From Bacteroidales bacterium (lineage in GTDB: Bacteria > Bacteroidota > Bacteroidia > Bacteroidales > JAAUTT01): a DNA stretch of 64,000 bases. Positions 16,072 through 59,483 of this stretch are shown here, one piece after another (position 1 is the stretch's first letter; the number at the start of each line of letters is the position of its first letter). The translations under genes and the position numbers were made by a program. The notes under the pieces were generated by a model. It saw only the letters and a program-made list of their open reading frames with translations. It searched no databases and was not told where the DNA came from. Where the stretch lies: the NCBI GenBank assembly GCA_038213375.1, contig JBBQTB010000008.1, forward strand, positions 75,180-139,179, written 5' to 3'.

Positions 16072-18180
16072 ATGGCAACATTACAGAAGATTAGAAGCAA
16101 AGGTATAATTATTGCCAGCGTAATTGGCCTGTCCTTATTAGCATTTATATTAGGCGATTTTCTTGATTCAAGAAAGTCAATATTTAGAAGCAATAAACAG
16201 GATGTTGGAGAAATAGCTGGCACAACCATACCAATCCAACAAATGGAACAAAAAATTAATGAGTTGACAGAAATACATAAAATGAATTCCGGACAGGGAA
16301 ACGTGGACGAAAAAACACTTGATGGTATACGCGAACAAGCCTGGCAGCAAATTTCCAACGACATGGTGATGGGAAAAGAATATGATAAACTTGGACTAAC
16401 GGTCACTTCCGACGAACTTTTTGATCTTGTTCAGGGAGCCAACCCTCATCAAATTGTTCGGCAGATTTTTACCAATCCACAAACAGGCGAGTTCAACAAA
16501 TCCAATTTATTAGCCTTTTTAAAAAATATGGATCAGGATCAGACAGGGAAACAGAAAATGTTTTGGTTATATATCGAAGAACAGATAAAAAACGATCGTA
16601 TCAATAACAAATATACTAATCTGATTCGTAAAGGATTATCTGCTCCTACCTTTCTGGCAAAAAATGATTTTATTGAAAATAATAAAAAGACGGATTTTAA
16701 TTATATTTCGCTTCGATACAACACTATATCCGATACTGCGGTAAAAATTACTTCATCAGACCTAAAAAAATATTACAACGATCACAAATTTCTTTTCGAC
16801 CAATCTGCTTCCCGGGATATAGAATATGTATCGTTTGATGTAATACCGTCTAAAACGGATATTAATGCTGCCCAAGACTGGATAACCAAGGTGAAACCTG
16901 ATTTTAATTCAACTACTGAAGTGGAGCAATTTGTAAACGGAAACTCAGATGTGCCTTACAATGATAAAAGCTATAAACCGGGTCAACTGCCCGATTCGCT
17001 TGATAATTTTATGTTTAGGTCGTCGATTGGCGAAGTTTACGGTCCATATTTGGACAATGGTTCATATAAATTAGCACGTCTTTACAAAGTGGTTAATTTG
17101 CCTGACTCAGTAAAAGCCCGTCATATCCTGATATCCGCAAAAGCTCAGACCAAAGAAGCTGCAACGAAAGCAAAGGTTACTGCCGACAGTATTAAAAATT
17201 TGCTGGATAAAGGTGCTGATTTTGCACTATTGGCCAGGAGTTTCTCTGATGACAAAAGCAATGCGGAAAAGGGCGGCGATTTAGGATGGTTTCAGGAAGG
17301 CCTCATGGTAAAACCATTTAGCGATGCTGCTTTTGAAGGAAAAAAAGGTGAAACAAAAGTGGTAGAAACCCGGTTTGGGTATCACATTCTTCAGGTTTTA
17401 GAAAAAGGTAAAGACATTAAAAAGGTAAAAGTTGCTATAATTGAACGTAAAATCGAACCAAGCCAGCCAACTTTCAACAAAGTGTATGCAGATGCCAATA
17501 AATTCGCTGCTTCAAACAGGACTTACGAACAATTTAATGCAGCAATCACCAAACAAAATCTTGCCAAAAAGCTTGCCACCAACATTGCGGAAACAGACAA
17601 AGCAATTCCCGGATTGGAGCAACCACGTGCGGTTCTTCGTTGGATGTATTCATCGGACAAGTTAACCGTTTCCGAACCAATTGATCTGGGTGATCGTTAC
17701 GTTGTTGCTGCCCTTACGGCTGTTCGCAAAAAAGGCGCTGCACCAATTGAACAAGTAAAAGCAGATGTTGAATTACAGGTTCGCAAAGAAAAAAAGGCCG
17801 AAAAGCTTGCTGAACAAATCAATAAAGCAAAATCCGGAGTGTCAAACATTCAGGATCTCGGTCTAAAATTAAACACTCCGGTTGAAGTGGCCAATGGCAT
17901 TTCTTTTTCAACTTACTCCCTGCCTAGTTCTGGCATAGAGCCTAAAGTTATTGCAGCTGGTACCTCTTTTGGTAAGAGCAAAATATCGGAACCTATAAAT
18001 GGCAACAATGGTGTTTATGTGGTGTATGTTTCAAATATAACCAATGCTCCTGCGAGCAAGAACTATGCAGAATCCAAACAACGTATGGGATATACTTTTC
18101 AAACCCGTGCCAGCTACGACAGTTATAATGCACTTCGTAAGCTCGCCAAAATCGTTGACAATCGCGCAAAGTTTTATTAG
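16072..18180 (+). CDS. PpiD-like periplasmic chaperone / parvulin-type peptidyl-prolyl isomerase
   Basis: N-terminal membrane anchor, SurA_N-like region, and parvulin core ARHILI...GGDLGWF...FGYHILQV. Confidence 0.8.
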   Translation: MATLQKIRSKGIIIASVIGLSLLAFILGDFLDSRKSIFRSNKQDVGEIAGTTIPIQQMEQKINELTEIHKMNSGQGNVDEKTLDGIREQAWQQISNDMVMGKEYDKLGLTVTSDELFDLVQGANPHQIVRQIFTNPQTGEFNKSNLLAFLKNMDQDQTGKQKMFWLYIEEQIKNDRINNKYTNLIRKGLSAPTFLAKNDFIENNKKTDFNYISLRYNTISDTAVKITSSDLKKYYNDHKFLFDQSASRDIEYVSFDVIPSKTDINAAQDWITKVKPDFNSTTEVEQFVNGNSDVPYNDKSYKPGQLPDSLDNFMFRSSIGEVYGPYLDNGSYKLARLYKVVNLPDSVKARHILISAKAQTKEAATKAKVTADSIKNLLDKGADFALLARSFSDDKSNAEKGGDLGWFQEGLMVKPFSDAAFEGKKGETKVVETRFGYHILQVLEKGKDIKKVKVAIIERKIEPSQPTFNKVYADANKFAASNRTYEQFNAAITKQNLAKKLATNIAETDKAIPGLEQPRAVLRWMYSSDKLTVSEPIDLGDRYVVAALTAVRKKGAAPIEQVKADVELQVRKEKKAEKLAEQINKAKSGVSNIQDLGLKLNTPVEVANGISFSTYSLPSSGIEPKVIAAGTSFGKSKISEPINGNNGVYVVYVSNITNAPASKNYAESKQRMGYTFQTRASYDSYNALRKLAKIVDNRAKFY

Positions 18181-18258
18181 GATAAAGAATCAATTATTAC
18201 GGAATTAAGTTATTAATAGCCCTGGCATTTATGCTGGGGCTATTCGCAAAAAAACACA

Positions 18259-18858
18259 ATGAAAATAATCAGATTTATTTTATTTGGAGCTATTTTACAA
18301 CTCAATTTAGGTCTTCTTATGGCTCAAACTGAAAAAGTCGCTTTAATTAAACCATTTGGAATAGGCTTACATATCGAACAATTTAAATTATATGACCTCA
18401 CCGATGTGAATTATGCACCAGCAAATAAATTGATTTTCACTATTAGTCCATGGAGTTCTTTCAGGTTTGAACCTGAGTTCGGATTTAGATTTAATAACGA
18501 TAAAACAAATAGTAAAAAAAACCATGGTGTATATTTTGGTTTAGGAGCCTTTAAAATGATTCAACATAATAAGTTAAACATTTATGGTGGAGTACGAATT
18601 GAATATGCTTCTATTAAATGGAATATTGGCGGTTCCAGTCTTATATATGGTGCAGCTGGAGGTAATCCAACTAGTTTCACTACTCGTTTTACAATAGGCC
18701 CTGCTTTAGGATGTGAATACTATTTGGGTGAAAATTTTGCTTTTGGTGGTGAACTTGGGTTGAAATATGCTTCACTAAAATCTACTATTTCTGATAAAGA
18801 ATTAAAAAGTAACTATTTTACAACCGATACCGGATTATTCATTCGATATTATTTTTGA
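18259..18858 (+). CDS. small outer-membrane beta-barrel protein
   Basis: Signal peptide, alternating hydrophobic beta-strand pattern, and C-terminal aromatic end ...GLFIRYYF. Confidence 0.65.
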   Translation: MKIIRFILFGAILQLNLGLLMAQTEKVALIKPFGIGLHIEQFKLYDLTDVNYAPANKLIFTISPWSSFRFEPEFGFRFNNDKTNSKKNHGVYFGLGAFKMIQHNKLNIYGGVRIEYASIKWNIGGSSLIYGAAGGNPTSFTTRFTIGPALGCEYYLGENFAFGGELGLKYASLKSTISDKELKSNYFTTDTGLFIRYYF

Positions 18859-18886
18859 GAAAACATCATTACAAGCAATTAAAAAA

Positions 18887-18917
18887 TTTGAACACTCAAT
18901 AATATTTTATAGTTTTG
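18887..18917 (+). promoter_or_regulatory. Bacteroidota-type promoter (TTTG-N19-TAgtTTTG)
   Basis: TTTG at 18887-18890 and TAGTTTTG at 18910-18917 are 19 nt apart. This matches the -33 TTTG / -7 TAnnTTTG consensus. It lies 22 nt upstream of the small ORF ATG. Confidence 0.55.
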
Positions 18918-18938
18918 TCCAATACAACAACAACAGAA

Positions 18939-19049
18939 ATGAAAATCAGTAGCAGTTTATACCAACCAACAGCAAACACGGCACCTCTCGCAGTGTCTAT
19001 GGTTATTGTTGGTTTTTTTGATTACTACCGGGTTTTTCTTATTTTATAA
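18939..19049 (+). CDS. 36-codon candidate leader peptide ORF (MKISSSLYQPTANTAPLAVSMVIVGFFDYYRVFLIL)
   Basis: ATG at 18939 and TAA at 19047-19049. Its 3' end overlaps segment 1 of a three-segment alternative-pairing structure. Not in the ORF track because it is too short. Confidence 0.4.
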   Translation: MKISSSLYQPTANTAPLAVSMVIVGFFDYYRVFLIL

Positions 19050-19072
19050 ACAGAGAGTTTTTCTCACCATAT

Positions 19073-19107
19073 AAACCCGGTTTGCATTAGCAAAACCGGG
19101 TTTTTTT
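19073..19107 (+). terminator. strong intrinsic terminator immediately upstream of the MATE gene
   Basis: Perfect 11-bp stem AAACCCGGTTT (19073-19083) / AAACCGGGTTT (19093-19103), a 9-nt loop, then a T-run at 19104-19107. Confidence 0.75.
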
Positions 19108-19125
19108 GTTTAATCACACTTTCAT

Positions 19126-20577
19126 ATGTTACGAAAATATTTAAAAAATAAGCTTTCAATTGCCGGATCAATTAAATTAACACAATCAAAGGCAATGAAT
19201 CTATTGGGCGAAATGTTTGCAGCCATAAAAGGCAGCGAACAGGACTACACCAAAATTGGCCTTAACAAATCGATATTTCTGCTTGCCGTTCCTATGGTTC
19301 TTGAGATGATGATGGAATCGCTTTTCGCTATTGTCGATATATTTTTTGTATCCCGGCTCGGTTCCGATGCAATCGCGACAGTTGGACTTACTGAATCGAT
19401 GATGACCATTATATACGCCATTGGCTTTGGGTTAAGCGCTGGTACTACTGCCATTATTTCAAGACGCATAGGCGAGAATAACAGAGAGGGAGCTTCTGTT
19501 GCCGCCTCGCAGGCAATAATAGCAGGTATATTTATAGCCTTGGTTTTAGCTATTCCAGGATTATTTTTTTCCGAACAATTGCTACGACTGATGGGAGCAT
19601 CGGAGAAGTTAATTATCGATAACCACATGTTTACGGCCATTATGCTTAGTGGAAACATCGTTATATTGCTGCTTTTCATCATTAATGCCGCTTTTCGCAG
19701 TGCCGGTGATGCAGCCATTGCCATGAGAGTGCTTTGGTATGCCAACATATTGAATATGATTCTTGACCCATGCCTCATCTTTGGTCTGGGGCCATTTCCT
19801 GCACTTGGCATAAAAGGCGCTGCCATCGCTACTAGCACTGGCAGGGGATTAGCGGTAATTTACCAAATATATCTTTTATTCTCAGGCAAAAGAGGGATAA
19901 AACTATTATTATCACATATAAAGATAAAATGGAAAGTGCTTCGGCAAATTTTTAAACTCTCACTTGGAGGAACGATGCAAAACCTTATAGCCACCACCAG
20001 CTGGGTATTTATGGTAAGAACGTTATCCGTCTTCGGGAGCGAAGTTGTGGCCGGTTACACTATAGCCATTCGAATTGTTATATTCTCACTTCTTCCATCG
20101 TGGGGTCTGAGCAACGCGGCATCAACACTTGTAGGACAGAATCTTGGTGCCGGAAAACCTGAGCGCGCCGAACGGGCCGCCTGGATTACAAGCATCGCAA
20201 ATATTATTGTTATGGGAATTGCCGGTGTTTTCCTTATCTCTTTCCCACACGTGTTTATAAAGCTATTTTCTACCAACGCCTTGGTTATCGAAAAGGGAGC
20301 GGTTTGTTTGCGAATGATCAGTTACGGATTTATATTTTACGGATTAGGAATGGTGATGGTACAATCTATTAACGGGGCTGGAGATACATATACTCCCACC
20401 TATATTAACCTATTCTGTTTTTGGGGGCTTGAAATTCCGCTGGCTTATTTGCTTGCAATTCATTTGGGTGTCGGTGAAAAAGGGGTTTACATCGCAATTG
20501 TTATTGCCGAAACCATGTTAGCAATTACCGGGTTCATTATTTTCCGCAAAGGAAAATGGAAGCTGAAAAAAGTGTAG
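19126..20577 (+). CDS. MATE-family multidrug/toxin efflux transporter
   Basis: 12-TM profile with LAVPMVLEMMMESLFAIVDIFFVSRLG and a second-half repeat ...LSLGGTMQNL.... The true start may be the ATG at 19195 (MNLLGEMF). Confidence 0.85.
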   Translation: MLRKYLKNKLSIAGSIKLTQSKAMNLLGEMFAAIKGSEQDYTKIGLNKSIFLLAVPMVLEMMMESLFAIVDIFFVSRLGSDAIATVGLTESMMTIIYAIGFGLSAGTTAIISRRIGENNREGASVAASQAIIAGIFIALVLAIPGLFFSEQLLRLMGASEKLIIDNHMFTAIMLSGNIVILLLFIINAAFRSAGDAAIAMRVLWYANILNMILDPCLIFGLGPFPALGIKGAAIATSTGRGLAVIYQIYLLFSGKRGIKLLLSHIKIKWKVLRQIFKLSLGGTMQNLIATTSWVFMVRTLSVFGSEVVAGYTIAIRIVIFSLLPSWGLSNAASTLVGQNLGAGKPERAERAAWITSIANIIVMGIAGVFLISFPHVFIKLFSTNALVIEKGAVCLRMISYGFIFYGLGMVMVQSINGAGDTYTPTYINLFCFWGLEIPLAYLLAIHLGVGEKGVYIAIVIAETMLAITGFIIFRKGKWKLKKV

Positions 20578-20862: not shown

Positions 20863-23487
20863 ATGAGACACCTGTTATTTTTTTCAATCTTAGCAAATCT
20901 ATTTGTTGCAACTTATAGCCAGGGAATCAGGGGAATTATTACCGATGAAAAGAAAGAGCCGATTCCGTTTGCAACTATTTATATTGAAAACCTAAAAACG
21001 GGTGCCAGTTCGAATGCAAATGGCAGATTTGAGATCAATCTGAAATCAGGCACTTACACTATCCTTTTCCGATCGCTTGGTTACAAGCAGGTGAGAAAGG
21101 AAGTTTCTGTTGGTAGTTCATTGCAAACAATCGATATTGCGATGATTACCGAGAGTTATCAGATAAAAGAAGTAACTATTACACAAAATTCGGAAGATCC
21201 TGCTTATGCCATTATGCGACGGGTAATTGCATGGGCGCCCTATCACCTCAATCAGGTCAAACATTATCAATCGGAATTGTACATGAAAGGCACCATGATT
21301 CTGGATAAAATGCCACGATTGTTGGCGAAAAAGATGACATTTTCGGATAAAAACGGGAAAGAGATTAAAATTAAAACAGGTTATGCATATCTTGATGAAT
21401 CGATGAATGAAATAACTTTTGATGCACCGAATAAATACAAACAAAAAGTTAAATCGTTACGATCGACTTTCCCTGAAAACAGTAATCAACCCGTAACCCC
21501 TGTTGAGTTCATAAAAACAAGTTTTTATCAACCTGAAATACTTGAACAAATATCTCCTATTTCGCCAAAATCTTTTTCCCATTACCTATTCTCTTACGAA
21601 GGCTTTAGCAAGGAAGGCGACTATCTGGTGGATAAAATTAAAGTGATTCCCCGTCGCAAAAGCCAGAAGTTATTTTCCGGGTACATCTACATAGTTGAAC
21701 AATACTGGTGCTTGCATTCCGTTGATCTTCGTAACGAGCAATTCTGGGGCTCTATTGATATCAAACAAATTTATTCGCCGGTAATTGACAATGCCTGGCT
21801 ACCAATAAGTCATACTTTCCGTGTTGAAGCTTCAATGTTAGGTATTAAAGGACGATACAATTACATATCTACCGTTAAATTCACAAATCTGCAAATCAAT
21901 GAGCGGTTGAAAGGGCCTGTGGTTGCCAAATTGCCGGATCGGCCTTCTGGTGCAGAGGAAGAGAACAACAAAACGCAAAAATTGCTTACTAAGAAGGATT
22001 TTACAAAGCGCGATTTGCGAAAAGTGGTAAAAGCAACCCGTGAGGAAGAGAAGAAAAACAAACGAGATACTATAAAATCGCTCGAAATAAAAGATAGGCG
22101 TTCTGATGTTAAGATTGAAGTAGATTCATTAGCATCTAGGCGCGACACTTCCTTTTGGAATACTATGCGACCTGTTCCATTGACCGTCGAAGAGGTTAAA
22201 AGTTTCCACGTCAAGGATTCGGTGATCATCAATACTCAACCCAAGGCCAAAAACGATACTATAAAAAAATCAACAAAAAAGAAATTACCGGAGCCAATAA
22301 AGAACTTATTTTTTGGCTCATCGAAGTACTTGAAACATTTAAAAACAAACATAAGCTATAGCGGTTTGGTAGCTCCAAAATACCTTGCATTCAATACAGT
22401 GGACGGTTGGGTTTATGGGCAATCATTTAATTGTAACACACGCATCGATAGTATTCATAGTTTTTCAATTAAACCTGTCGGTTACTATGCCTTCAATCGT
22501 AAAACATTCATGGGAGTGGTTACGGGGAAATACCTTTATGCACCTTTTAAAAACGGTGAATTTTCAATTGATGGAGGCACTGTCAGTTCCGATTTTAATC
22601 AAACCTCAGGAATAAATGACAGGATAAATACTATTGCGTCGCTATTCTTAAGGTATAATTATATGAAACTATTCGAAAAACGACATGTTACTGTTGGCAA
22701 CCAAATTGACCTGGCAAACGGATTACAACTTTCAACATCGGCAACCTATATGCAAACCCGATTCCTGAAAAATACCAGCGATTATTCGTTTTTCTTCAGG
22801 AACAAAAGAGATTATACTTCAAATGTTCCGAACAACGACGTTTTCCTTCAGTCACAAAATTCGAATTATAAAAGTTTTTCGGTGAATGCCGGCTTAAGTT
22901 ACACACCGGAATATTACTATAAAATAGAAAATCATCGTAAAAAAATGATCCGGTCTAAATATCCAACCTTCAATGTGAACTACAAAGGCGGATTGATTGG
23001 GATCCTTGGCAGCAACTCATCCTATAATTTATTTTCAGGGAGTTTGAATCAACACATCGAAACTTCGAGTGGAAGTGCCTTACAATACCGACTGGAAAGT
23101 GGGGTTTTCATTAGTGTAAAAGATATTCAATTCTCTGAGTTCAAGCATTTCAATACACAGTTTATGGCGGTTCAGTTTACAGATTTTGAAAATTCCTTTC
23201 AACTACTTGATTTCTATAGATACAGCACTTCGAAAAATTATATTGAAGGACACATCCAATATCAAACCGATTTGCTGCTGCTGAAGCGACTTCCTTTAAT
23301 ATCAAACACGATATGGAACGAAAACCTGTATCTGAATTACCTTAACACACCAGCGTTAAAAAATTATGTTGAACTTGGTTATGGCGTCGGTCAGATTTAT
23401 CTCATTGGAAATATTAGTGTCTTTGGGTCGTTTGAAAATGGAAAGTATAAATCTGTAGGAGTGAGGTTAGGTTTGAAGTTTAATTAA
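20863..23487 (+). CDS. CarboxypepD_reg-like domain plus DUF5686 outer-membrane-associated protein
   Basis: Signal peptide followed by GIITDEKKEPIPFATIYIENLKTGASSNANGRFEINLKSGTYTILFRSLGYK, a carboxypeptidase-regulatory-like fold. The long C-terminal region has a beta-barrel-like ending. Confidence 0.7.
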   Translation: MRHLLFFSILANLFVATYSQGIRGIITDEKKEPIPFATIYIENLKTGASSNANGRFEINLKSGTYTILFRSLGYKQVRKEVSVGSSLQTIDIAMITESYQIKEVTITQNSEDPAYAIMRRVIAWAPYHLNQVKHYQSELYMKGTMILDKMPRLLAKKMTFSDKNGKEIKIKTGYAYLDESMNEITFDAPNKYKQKVKSLRSTFPENSNQPVTPVEFIKTSFYQPEILEQISPISPKSFSHYLFSYEGFSKEGDYLVDKIKVIPRRKSQKLFSGYIYIVEQYWCLHSVDLRNEQFWGSIDIKQIYSPVIDNAWLPISHTFRVEASMLGIKGRYNYISTVKFTNLQINERLKGPVVAKLPDRPSGAEEENNKTQKLLTKKDFTKRDLRKVVKATREEEKKNKRDTIKSLEIKDRRSDVKIEVDSLASRRDTSFWNTMRPVPLTVEEVKSFHVKDSVIINTQPKAKNDTIKKSTKKKLPEPIKNLFFGSSKYLKHLKTNISYSGLVAPKYLAFNTVDGWVYGQSFNCNTRIDSIHSFSIKPVGYYAFNRKTFMGVVTGKYLYAPFKNGEFSIDGGTVSSDFNQTSGINDRINTIASLFLRYNYMKLFEKRHVTVGNQIDLANGLQLSTSATYMQTRFLKNTSDYSFFFRNKRDYTSNVPNNDVFLQSQNSNYKSFSVNAGLSYTPEYYYKIENHRKKMIRSKYPTFNVNYKGGLIGILGSNSSYNLFSGSLNQHIETSSGSALQYRLESGVFISVKDIQFSEFKHFNTQFMAVQFTDFENSFQLLDFYRYSTSKNYIEGHIQYQTDLLLLKRLPLISNTIWNENLYLNYLNTPALKNYVELGYGVGQIYLIGNISVFGSFENGKYKSVGVRLGLKFN

Positions 23488-59255: not shown

Positions 59256-59483
59256 GTTCTACTTTACGAAGTTGTTTATGATTTATTTTCAATTTATAAG
59301 CCCTGTAAGGGCAAAATATATCAGCCCAGCCTAACGGGCTGGGTAAAATAACCGATAATAAATTTAGGCCTGAAAGGTCGAAATATTATTAACTTTAAGT
59401 GCTTGATCCAATTAACCCGACGCTTCGCAGCTGGCTGGTCTATATCGCACTTTCAGTGCTTATTTAAGTTCGTAAAGTAGAAC
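59256..59483. repeat. 228-bp MITE-like element with 18-bp terminal inverted repeats and internal hairpin modules
   Basis: GTTCTACTTTACGAAGTT (59256-59273) against AAGTTCGTAAAGTAGAAC (59466-59483), 17 of 18 complementary. Internal modules are GCCCTGTAAGGGC + A/T spacer + CCCAGCC-TAACG-GGCTGGG in forward orientation, and a diverged copy (GCACTGAAAGTGC...) in inverted orientation. Confidence 0.6.

Follow-up and report, generated by a model that had tools for sequence, protein, structure and literature searches.

What governs the expression of the MATE family efflux transporter gene that begins at position 19126 of the Bacteroidales DNA analyzed here (64,000 nucleotides (nt), contig JBBQTB010000008.1; hereafter the window)? 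A first-pass annotation had placed directly upstream of this gene a promoter, a 36-codon leader open reading frame (ORF), and three segments with alternative pairings (a 1:2 antiterminator or a 2:3 terminator), and had read them as an attenuator operated by the ribosome that translates the leader. We find that this region harbors what is most likely a conserved, uncatalogued leader-peptide transcription attenuator of familiar design, positioned before a MATE pump in uncultured Bacteroidales. From sequence comparison and RNA folding models, we consider it likely that the attenuator depends on ribosomes and controls the exporter. Most documented cases of resistance and efflux genes under ribosome-mediated attenuation come from Firmicutes, with some from Proteobacteria. 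Bacteroidota use different promoters, and their translation starts generally do not rely on Shine-Dalgarno sequences.

Orthologues of the pump were found by MATE-protein scans of genome contigs, metagenome contigs, and a protein database, combined with contig look-ups. They occur in uncultured Bacteroidales and, at lower identity, in many other phyla. Homologous leaders comprise 16 distinct sequences including that of the window, all metagenomic (wetland or sediment) and from one clade (Bacteroidales), and all located before MATE orthologues with identities to the window protein from 62% to 90-93%. The closest are three loci with identical upstream sequence (L161-163, 90%), followed by two near-identical copies (L096 and L166, about 80%), by L081, L082, L083, L085, and L167 (80%; the 5' end of L083 is cut off), by L002 and L168, which have the same leader sequence, together with L164 and L165 (all 79%), and by L084 (78%), L173 (76%), L169 (75%), L170 (74%), and the much diverged L099 (62%). 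Conservation in relatives, on which the first-pass reading hinged, is borne out: promoter, ORF, segments 1-3, and U-tract are all kept before MATE orthologues with differing neighbors. The upstream genes, some of which are on the opposite strand, encode a SurA-like peptidyl-prolyl isomerase (PPIase), an outer membrane protein (OMP), pirin, NUDIX, DUF3788, SiaC, or a TonB-dependent receptor, which indicates that the element goes with the MATE gene. We rejected the idea that it is the terminator of the OMP gene that precedes it in the window, as it has a conserved promoter of its own and follows these unrelated genes in relatives. We built a covariance model (R1) from 14 members. It detects all of them at 97-177 bits, and also two sequences that were not used in building it, the 5'-cut L083 (77 bits) and the distant L099 (33.6 bits). 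Across 172 loci there are no false positives above 24 bits, and the window contains a single copy, scoring 154 bits.

The RNA from 18925 to 19125 has a minimum free energy (MFE) of -49.5 kcal/mol, compared with -31.6 +/- 3.4 in 200 dinucleotide shuffles (z -5.2, no shuffle being as good), and the full leaders of the homologues fold with z values of -0.8 to -7.3, mostly around -4. When folded alone, each member forms a long imperfect hairpin that spans the ORF and encloses a central hairpin (P1) with its apical stem, and then the terminator. In the window, where all of these features are on the + strand, the long hairpin is closed by segment 0 (18936-18957), which comprises the start-codon region and the first codons and pairs with 19020-19045, including segment 1; its MFE helices are GAAAUGA:UUAUUUU, AAAUC:GGUUU, GUAG:CUAC, and AGUU:GAUU. 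This closing helix, between segment 0 (typically AAAACCCG) and segment 1 (CGGGUUU), is predicted independently in every full-length homologue. P1 occupies 18964-19014, with arms AACCAACAG (18964-72) and UUGUUGGUU (19006-14) and an apical stem (GGCAC 18980-84/GUGUC 18993-97), and a U-run follows at 19013-19019. The annotation had listed an 8-bp stem plus T5 here (AACCAACA 18964-71/TGTTGGTT 19007-14), which is indeed present but forms the middle of the long hairpin rather than a separate structure. A direct repeat, GGTTTTTTTGATT (19011-19023) and GGTTTTTTTGTTT (19099-19111), makes the P1 3' arm and U-run a copy of the 3' side of the terminator, and P1 with its U-run may pause the polymerase or act as a weak first terminator within the leader ORF.

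Segment 1, ACCGGGTTT (ACCGGGUUU), lies at 19027-19035, covers codons Arg31-Val32, and is complementary to both segment 0 and segment 2; its CGGG core is invariant in 16/16 sequences, and in the window it is located 18 nt before the leader stop codon. Segment 2 is the 5' arm of the terminator (AAACCCGGUUUGC, 19073-19085, containing AAACCCGGTTT at 19073-19083) and the alternative partner of segment 1. Segment 3, the 3' arm with its U-tract (GCAAAACCGGGUUU, 19090-19107), contains AAACCGGGTTT at 19093-19103 and T7 at 19101-19107. The terminator had been described as an 11-bp stem with a U-tract; stem and tract are there, but the helix is longer, with 13 bp, one bulge (AAACCCGGUUUGC/GCAAAACCGGGUUU), and the loop AUUA. 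It is located 24-58 nt past the leader stop codon in the window, ends 18 nt before the MATE ATG, and is 93-99% paired across homologues. Segments 1-3 are where the annotation had put them. What it had missed is the fourth, segment 0, located at the 5' end of the ORF and pairing with segment 1. Owing to the likeness of segment 0 to segment 2 and of segment 1 to segment 3, the RNA can form either 0:1 plus 2:3 or 1:2; a nested form, 0:3 plus 1:2, is also possible in L161, L170, L084, and L167. As predicted from sequence and folding, the device would consist of four segments with two mutually exclusive states. The motif CCGGGTTT occurs eight times in the 64-kb window, compared with 2.0 expected, and three of these occurrences fall within 76 nt at this locus. 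The other five were rejected as terminators or copies of the element, with no hairpin partner or U-tract nearby.

Covariation was assessed on an alignment of 15 sequences fitted to the covariance model (A3), and an independent MAFFT alignment gave the same picture. For the 0:1, P1, and terminator helices taken together, 84.6% of the cells are paired, compared with 21-50% in slid registers, and 19 cells are altered on both sides, compared with 9.1 +/- 2.9 expected (0/500 shuffles). The covariation score is 0.170 versus 0.133 (1/500 shuffles). The compensatory changes are mostly in the P1 helices (CG<->UA and AU<->GC). RNAalifold on the MAFFT alignment recovered the terminator alone, the 5' helices being slightly misaligned there; per-sequence MFE pairs were therefore mapped onto the alignment. 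The long hairpin and the terminator thus show the covariation that had been proposed as a check, but the 1:2 helix, to which we return below, shows no excess, and its compensatory cases are limited to few members. In L083, segment 1 (GGGUCA) pairs with segment 2 (UGACCC). In L099, segments 1 (GAUCGGG), 2 (CCCGAUC), and 3 (GAUCGGG) are altered together, and its re-matched segment 0, AAACUUAUCC, pairs with GGGUAGGUUU. In L173, segment 0 (CGAUUA) pairs with the flank of segment 1 (UAAUCG).

Where would transcription of this RNA begin, and how would it reach the pump gene? The promoter is present as annotated, with a -33 element, TTTG at 18887-18890, a 19-nt spacer, and a -7 box, TAGTTTTG at 18910-18917, of the Bacteroidota TAnnTTTG type. 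The leader ORF starts about 21 nt past this box; in 14/15 homologues the distance from the end of a TAnnTTT(G/A) box to the leader ATG is 16-23 nt (35 nt in L099), and TTTG is found about 19-21 nt 5' of the -7 box in 13/15 homologous leaders, against a background for TAnnTTT(G/A) boxes of about 0.65 per kb, both strands counted. Transcription is predicted to start at this conserved promoter, about 15 nt 5' of the leader ORF. At the other end, the MATE ATG is 18 nt past the U-tract in the window, and the gap is 15-26 nt in most members. This leaves no space there for a promoter of the MATE gene, and the pump gene would therefore be reached via read-through of the terminator.

A promoter and a strong terminator of its own would also suit an independent small gene, encoding a small hydrophobic protein, a type I toxin-like peptide, or a small RNA (sRNA), with the pump expressed by constitutive leak-through. 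In a few contigs the ORF has been annotated by gene callers as "hypothetical protein," its peptides are moderately hydrophobic, and, in the manner of some toxin mRNAs, a long fold-back buries the start codon. However, the element always stands directly before a MATE orthologue, on the same strand and in differing contexts, and it occurs once only in the window. Past the terminator there is no space for a MATE promoter in most members; an independent gene would have no need for segment 1 as a duplicate of the terminator 3' arm; and the peptide is not conserved, with L169 and L173 reading its C terminus in a different frame. We regard this explanation as quite improbable.

The leader ORF runs from the ATG at 18939 to the stop codon at 19047-19049 (18939-19049, + strand), and its 36 codons encode MKISSSLYQPTANTAPLAVSMVIVGFFDYYRVFLIL, followed by the stop; these coordinates and the MATE ATG at 19126 were confirmed. 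Across 16 homologous loci the ORF has 29-36 codons, and its ATG is invariant in the 15/15 members with an intact 5' end. In 15 leader ORFs there are no internal stops in frame 0, compared with 56 in frame +1 and 29 in frame +2, and the probability of an open frame in mononucleotide shuffles is 0.06-0.23 per sequence. In the MAFFT alignment, every indel within the ORF is a multiple of three in length, unlike the gaps past the stop codon. As judged by its open frame, its conserved start, and the restriction of indels to multiples of three, the leader ORF is under selection.

What is selected appears to be the position of the ORF rather than its product. The leader peptides are 17-44% identical pairwise, and their only invariant residues are Met1 and one Arg, which comes from segment 1 except in L169. 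This Arg is encoded by CGG in 13/13 cases, whereas CGG accounts for 12% of the Arg codons in the long ORFs of the window. The better-conserved residues (N-terminal K-T-R; V-P-V, G-F, R-V-Y) coincide with codons in base-paired RNA. In L169 and L173, segment 1 is translated in another frame (T-G-C and I-G-F), and the stop codon is still 19 nt past the CGGG core; the core-to-stop distance is 12-19 nt in 14/15 measured members and 27 nt in L099. Because the conserved residues map to paired RNA and two members are frame-shifted at segment 1, the selected trait is probably that the ORF runs through segment 1 and ends shortly past it, and not the peptide sequence, which is itself probably not the sensor. 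No shared arrest motif, codon run, or codon enrichment was found among 14 aligned leader peptides, and a peptide-level arrest motif was rejected, as no motif is separable from the RNA constraints. An exact peptide look-up returned two peptide clusters only, both "hypothetical protein."

Poor conservation of the peptide, the coincidence of all conserved amino acids with base-paired RNA, and a strongly structured RNA with covariation in the long hairpin would also be expected of an attenuator that responds to a ligand or protein in the manner of a riboswitch, the long hairpin binding an effector that chooses between 0:1 and 1:2 while the ORF is an untranslated by-product. The selection on the ORF speaks against this: the frame is open in 15/15 members tested although the other frames contain 56 and 29 stops, the start is invariant, indels are multiples of three, and the stop codon stays at its distance from segment 1 even where the frame differs. 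Moreover, the invariant columns are those of the helices and the ATG, with no conserved unpaired nucleotides or junctions of the kind typical of a ligand pocket, and there is no match in Rfam. An E-value scan of 18000-20000 gave nothing better than E 0.04, with unrelated matches far below gathering scores, and scans at gathering thresholds gave no match at the locus (whole window scanned) and none at 20 orthologue loci; a known RNA family was rejected on these grounds. An effector-binding element of this kind thus seems unlikely to us.

The combination of a leader ORF, four segments, and a terminator is also the classical architecture of biosynthetic attenuators of the trp/his/leu type, which sense the supply of one charged tRNA and have been reported in Bacteroidota (PMC9723704). 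Here, however, the 14 aligned peptides have no codon runs or enrichment in common, and the downstream gene is an exporter rather than a biosynthetic operon, so that we give such amino-acid sensing next to no credence.

How might translation of the leader set the fate of the transcript? In the window the 1:2 hairpin has a predicted energy of -14.6 kcal/mol (-9 to -25 in homologues) and the 2:3 terminator of -17.9 kcal/mol (-12 to -19). In naked RNA the terminator state is favored over the antiterminator state by -8.5 kcal/mol in the window (homologue median about -5), and with a ribosome over segment 0 (P-site codon 5) the difference shrinks to -3.7 in the window and about -3 in most homologues. 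The full naked RNA favors 0:1 (the long hairpin) plus 2:3 (the terminator); since segment 0 pairs with segment 1, naked RNA defaults to the terminator state. In transcripts that end before segment 3, the probability of 1:2 is about 1 for ribosome positions up to roughly codon 26 of 36, and drops to 0 when segment 1 comes under the footprint, i.e. over the last ~9-10 codons, including a ribosome near the stop codon. The logic of the first-pass annotation is upheld by these folds, in which segment 1 pairs with segment 2 unless a ribosome sits on the last ~9-10 codons.

Under ribosome-dependent attenuation, brisk translation would place the ribosome over segment 1 or at the stop codon while the polymerase makes segments 2 and 3, so that the terminator forms and the pump is off. 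Untranslated RNA would also terminate, because segment 0 would hold or recapture segment 1; kinetically, 0:1 would form first and then assist segment 3 in displacing segment 1. If the ribosome lagged in the early part of the leader, and most of all over segment 0, segment 1 would be left free and would capture segment 2 on its emergence, pre-empting the terminator and allowing read-through into the MATE gene. P1 with its GGUUUU(UUU), which mirrors the 3' side of the terminator, may pause the polymerase and keep it in synchrony with the ribosome, as in the trp leader. Because the start codon is in the base of the finished hairpin, ribosome loading is probably limited to a co-transcriptional window.

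Several observations weigh against this reading. In truncated naked transcripts, 1:2 is thermodynamically favored over 0:1, which means that termination of untranslated RNA would depend on folding kinetics, and in most members the terminator wins at equilibrium even with a ribosome present, which means that read-through must be a kinetic effect. The antiterminator is 88-91% paired in register, compared with 10-49% in slid registers, but shows no statistical excess of covariation in the alignment because its core is invariant, and the predicted 1:2 pairing draws its support from this conserved register and two or three compensatory cases. One member, L164, is weakly structured (z -0.8). Finally, the element is not present at the close orthologues L001 (86%), L086 (75%), and L171/L172 (72%). 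L001 has two ordinary terminators past the PPIase gene and no leader (L001:2780-3000), the MATE gene of L171 has no leader and overlaps a glycosyltransferase gene upstream of it (L171:1172-1514), and L086 has no leader (L086:1-143). These cases indicate that the attenuator was lost or replaced repeatedly.

What signal would such a device read? It would be slowed or stalled translation of the leader, with ribosome-targeting compounds or general translation stress as the likeliest causes, an economical guess because an exporter lies downstream and there is no peptide motif or codon run. Induction by an antibiotic or by a substrate of the pump would be pure conjecture. Some leaders (L081:866-877, L167:294-311, L096:401-412, and L170:1375-1386) open with MKTR or MKTRxR, a Lys/Arg-x-Lys/Arg (+x+) pattern. 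With macrolides bound, ribosomes can be arrested by patterns of this type when the nascent chain is still very short. If a ribosome stalled at MKTR, it would cover segment 0. The nucleotides that encode MKTR (AAAACCCG) are also constrained by pairing, and the window leader (MKISSS) is without a +x+ pattern.

How does the element compare with known systems? Classical trp, his, and leu operon attenuators use a four-segment logic in which 1:2 plus 3:4 alternates with 2:3. The choice here between 0:1 plus 2:3 and 1:2 corresponds to it. In both, the first hairpin may act as a pause site, and the stop codon stands where a terminating ribosome would cover the second segment. The MATE leader differs in that it has no regulatory codon run, a transporter lies downstream, and segment 0 includes the start codon. 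Within Bacteroidota, the tetQ leader of Bacteroides CTnDOT has three codons and mediates translational attenuation, without an intrinsic terminator, of a ribosome-protection gene. It resembles the present case as leader-peptide-based control in Bacteroidota, and in tetQ this control is antibiotic-responsive. Leader-peptide attenuation has also been inferred for amino-acid operons in Bacteroidota, with leaders described in Flavobacterium psychrophilum (PMC9723704).

In Bacillus subtilis, bmrB-bmrCD is a multidrug ABC exporter system under ribosome-mediated transcriptional attenuation, in which translation of the leader is required and ribosome-targeting antibiotics induce (PMC4191407). The likeness lies in a short leader ORF co-transcribed with an efflux pump and in alternative stem-loops that include an intrinsic terminator. 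However, there is no sequence relationship, bmrB is from Firmicutes and controls an ABC rather than a MATE pump, and its terminator is within the leader coding region, whereas that of the MATE leader lies 24-58 nt past the stop codon. The mef(E)/mel leader (PMC4335068) and the yxjB tylosin leader (PMC6851288) likewise combine a leader peptide, a terminator/antiterminator choice, and a downstream resistance or efflux gene. The yxjB leader also uses RNA polymerase pausing (PMC6851288), which resembles the pause suggested for P1 and its U-run. Both depend on arrest by specific drugs at defined motifs of the peptide, whereas the MATE leader has no conserved motif separable from RNA constraints, and both are Gram-positive systems with Shine-Dalgarno-dependent initiation, whereas the MATE leader ATGs examined follow short A-rich 5' untranslated regions. 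The attenuation logic of toiL (PMC12121999) is alike, more loosely. None of bmrB, mef(E)/mel, yxjB, and toiL shares sequence with the MATE leader, and a full-text literature search found no ribosome-mediated attenuator described for MATE pumps or for efflux in Bacteroidota.

In the window the leader element lies between the OMP gene and the MATE gene, and all flanking genes are on the + strand. A SurA-like PPIase gene (16072-18180) is followed by a gene for an OMP beta-barrel protein of 199 amino acids (aa) (18259-18858), by the MATE family efflux transporter gene itself (19126-20577, 483 aa; Pfam MatE 2e-61, TIGR00797 8e-76), and by a DUF5686 protein gene (20863-23487). The 483-aa length and the N terminus "ML.K..." of the MATE protein are common to orthologues. 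In L161 (L161:983-1200; 90% MATE identity), the closest relative that shares this synteny, the order is PPIase, leader, MATE, and DUF5686, with no gene called between PPIase and leader, so that the OMP gene of the window appears to be a lineage-specific insertion or loss. Elsewhere in the window, the Rfam family Acido-Lenti-1, an sRNA, matches 59299-59343 on the - strand (37.3 bits against a gathering threshold of 37, E 7e-5).

Is control by a short upstream ORF peculiar to these leaders? At greater distance (about 60% identity), MATE orthologues have upstream ORFs that are also short and follow TAnnTTTG boxes but are of other kinds, each conserved within a pair or trio: MKILFPTFLFEVTVTNAGDIFSC/MKFKLSTYLMNVTVPNTGDFISC (L004:2730-2925/L090:2255-2450), MKIISITPSFCFTQPSV/MKLIVLPPAYCFVCTIV (L005:2790-2975/L087:1170-1360), MKISVNFTVNFNLPF/MMISIYITVTNCLQS (L007:2770-2925/L010:190-350), and MKTFDLVVAG/MKKFVFVF/MKKIVFVAVV (L003:2695-2950/L088:1165-1400/L089:300-590). 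In L004/L090 and L007/L010 the stop codon lies in the loop of a small hairpin, with no U-tract terminator after it. The pattern suggests that this MATE subfamily may be controlled by upstream ORFs through differing RNA designs. Two other candidates were discarded. The "AAAACCCTTCC...GGAAGGGTTTT" terminators before Flavobacteriaceae MATE orthologues were rejected as a second family and are ordinary terminators, since they directly follow a conserved gene ending in ...EEEMNH and have neither a leader ORF nor the segment 1 repeat. A motif past the leader stop, ACAGAGAG, was dropped because it is common only to L007 and L010, which are not true homologues.

A bolder proposal, which we put forward as tentative and on balance doubtful, is that the element would be the first ribosome-stalling sensor for drug or metabolite efflux in Bacteroidota, through which translation inhibitors or the substrate of the MATE pump would induce the pump, and that upstream-ORF control would be general in this MATE subfamily and repeatedly reinvented, at least four other conserved short-ORF leader classes having unrelated RNA designs. 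The element is conserved and compact (about 180 nt), and its four-segment logic is clear; it offers a testable model for the coupling of translation and transcription termination in Bacteroidota, and it is a candidate inducible regulatory part for Bacteroides engineering. It also adds an RNA family suitable for deposition. For the pumps themselves, it provides a way to approach the physiological substrate or inducer of a MATE subfamily that is otherwise uncharacterized.

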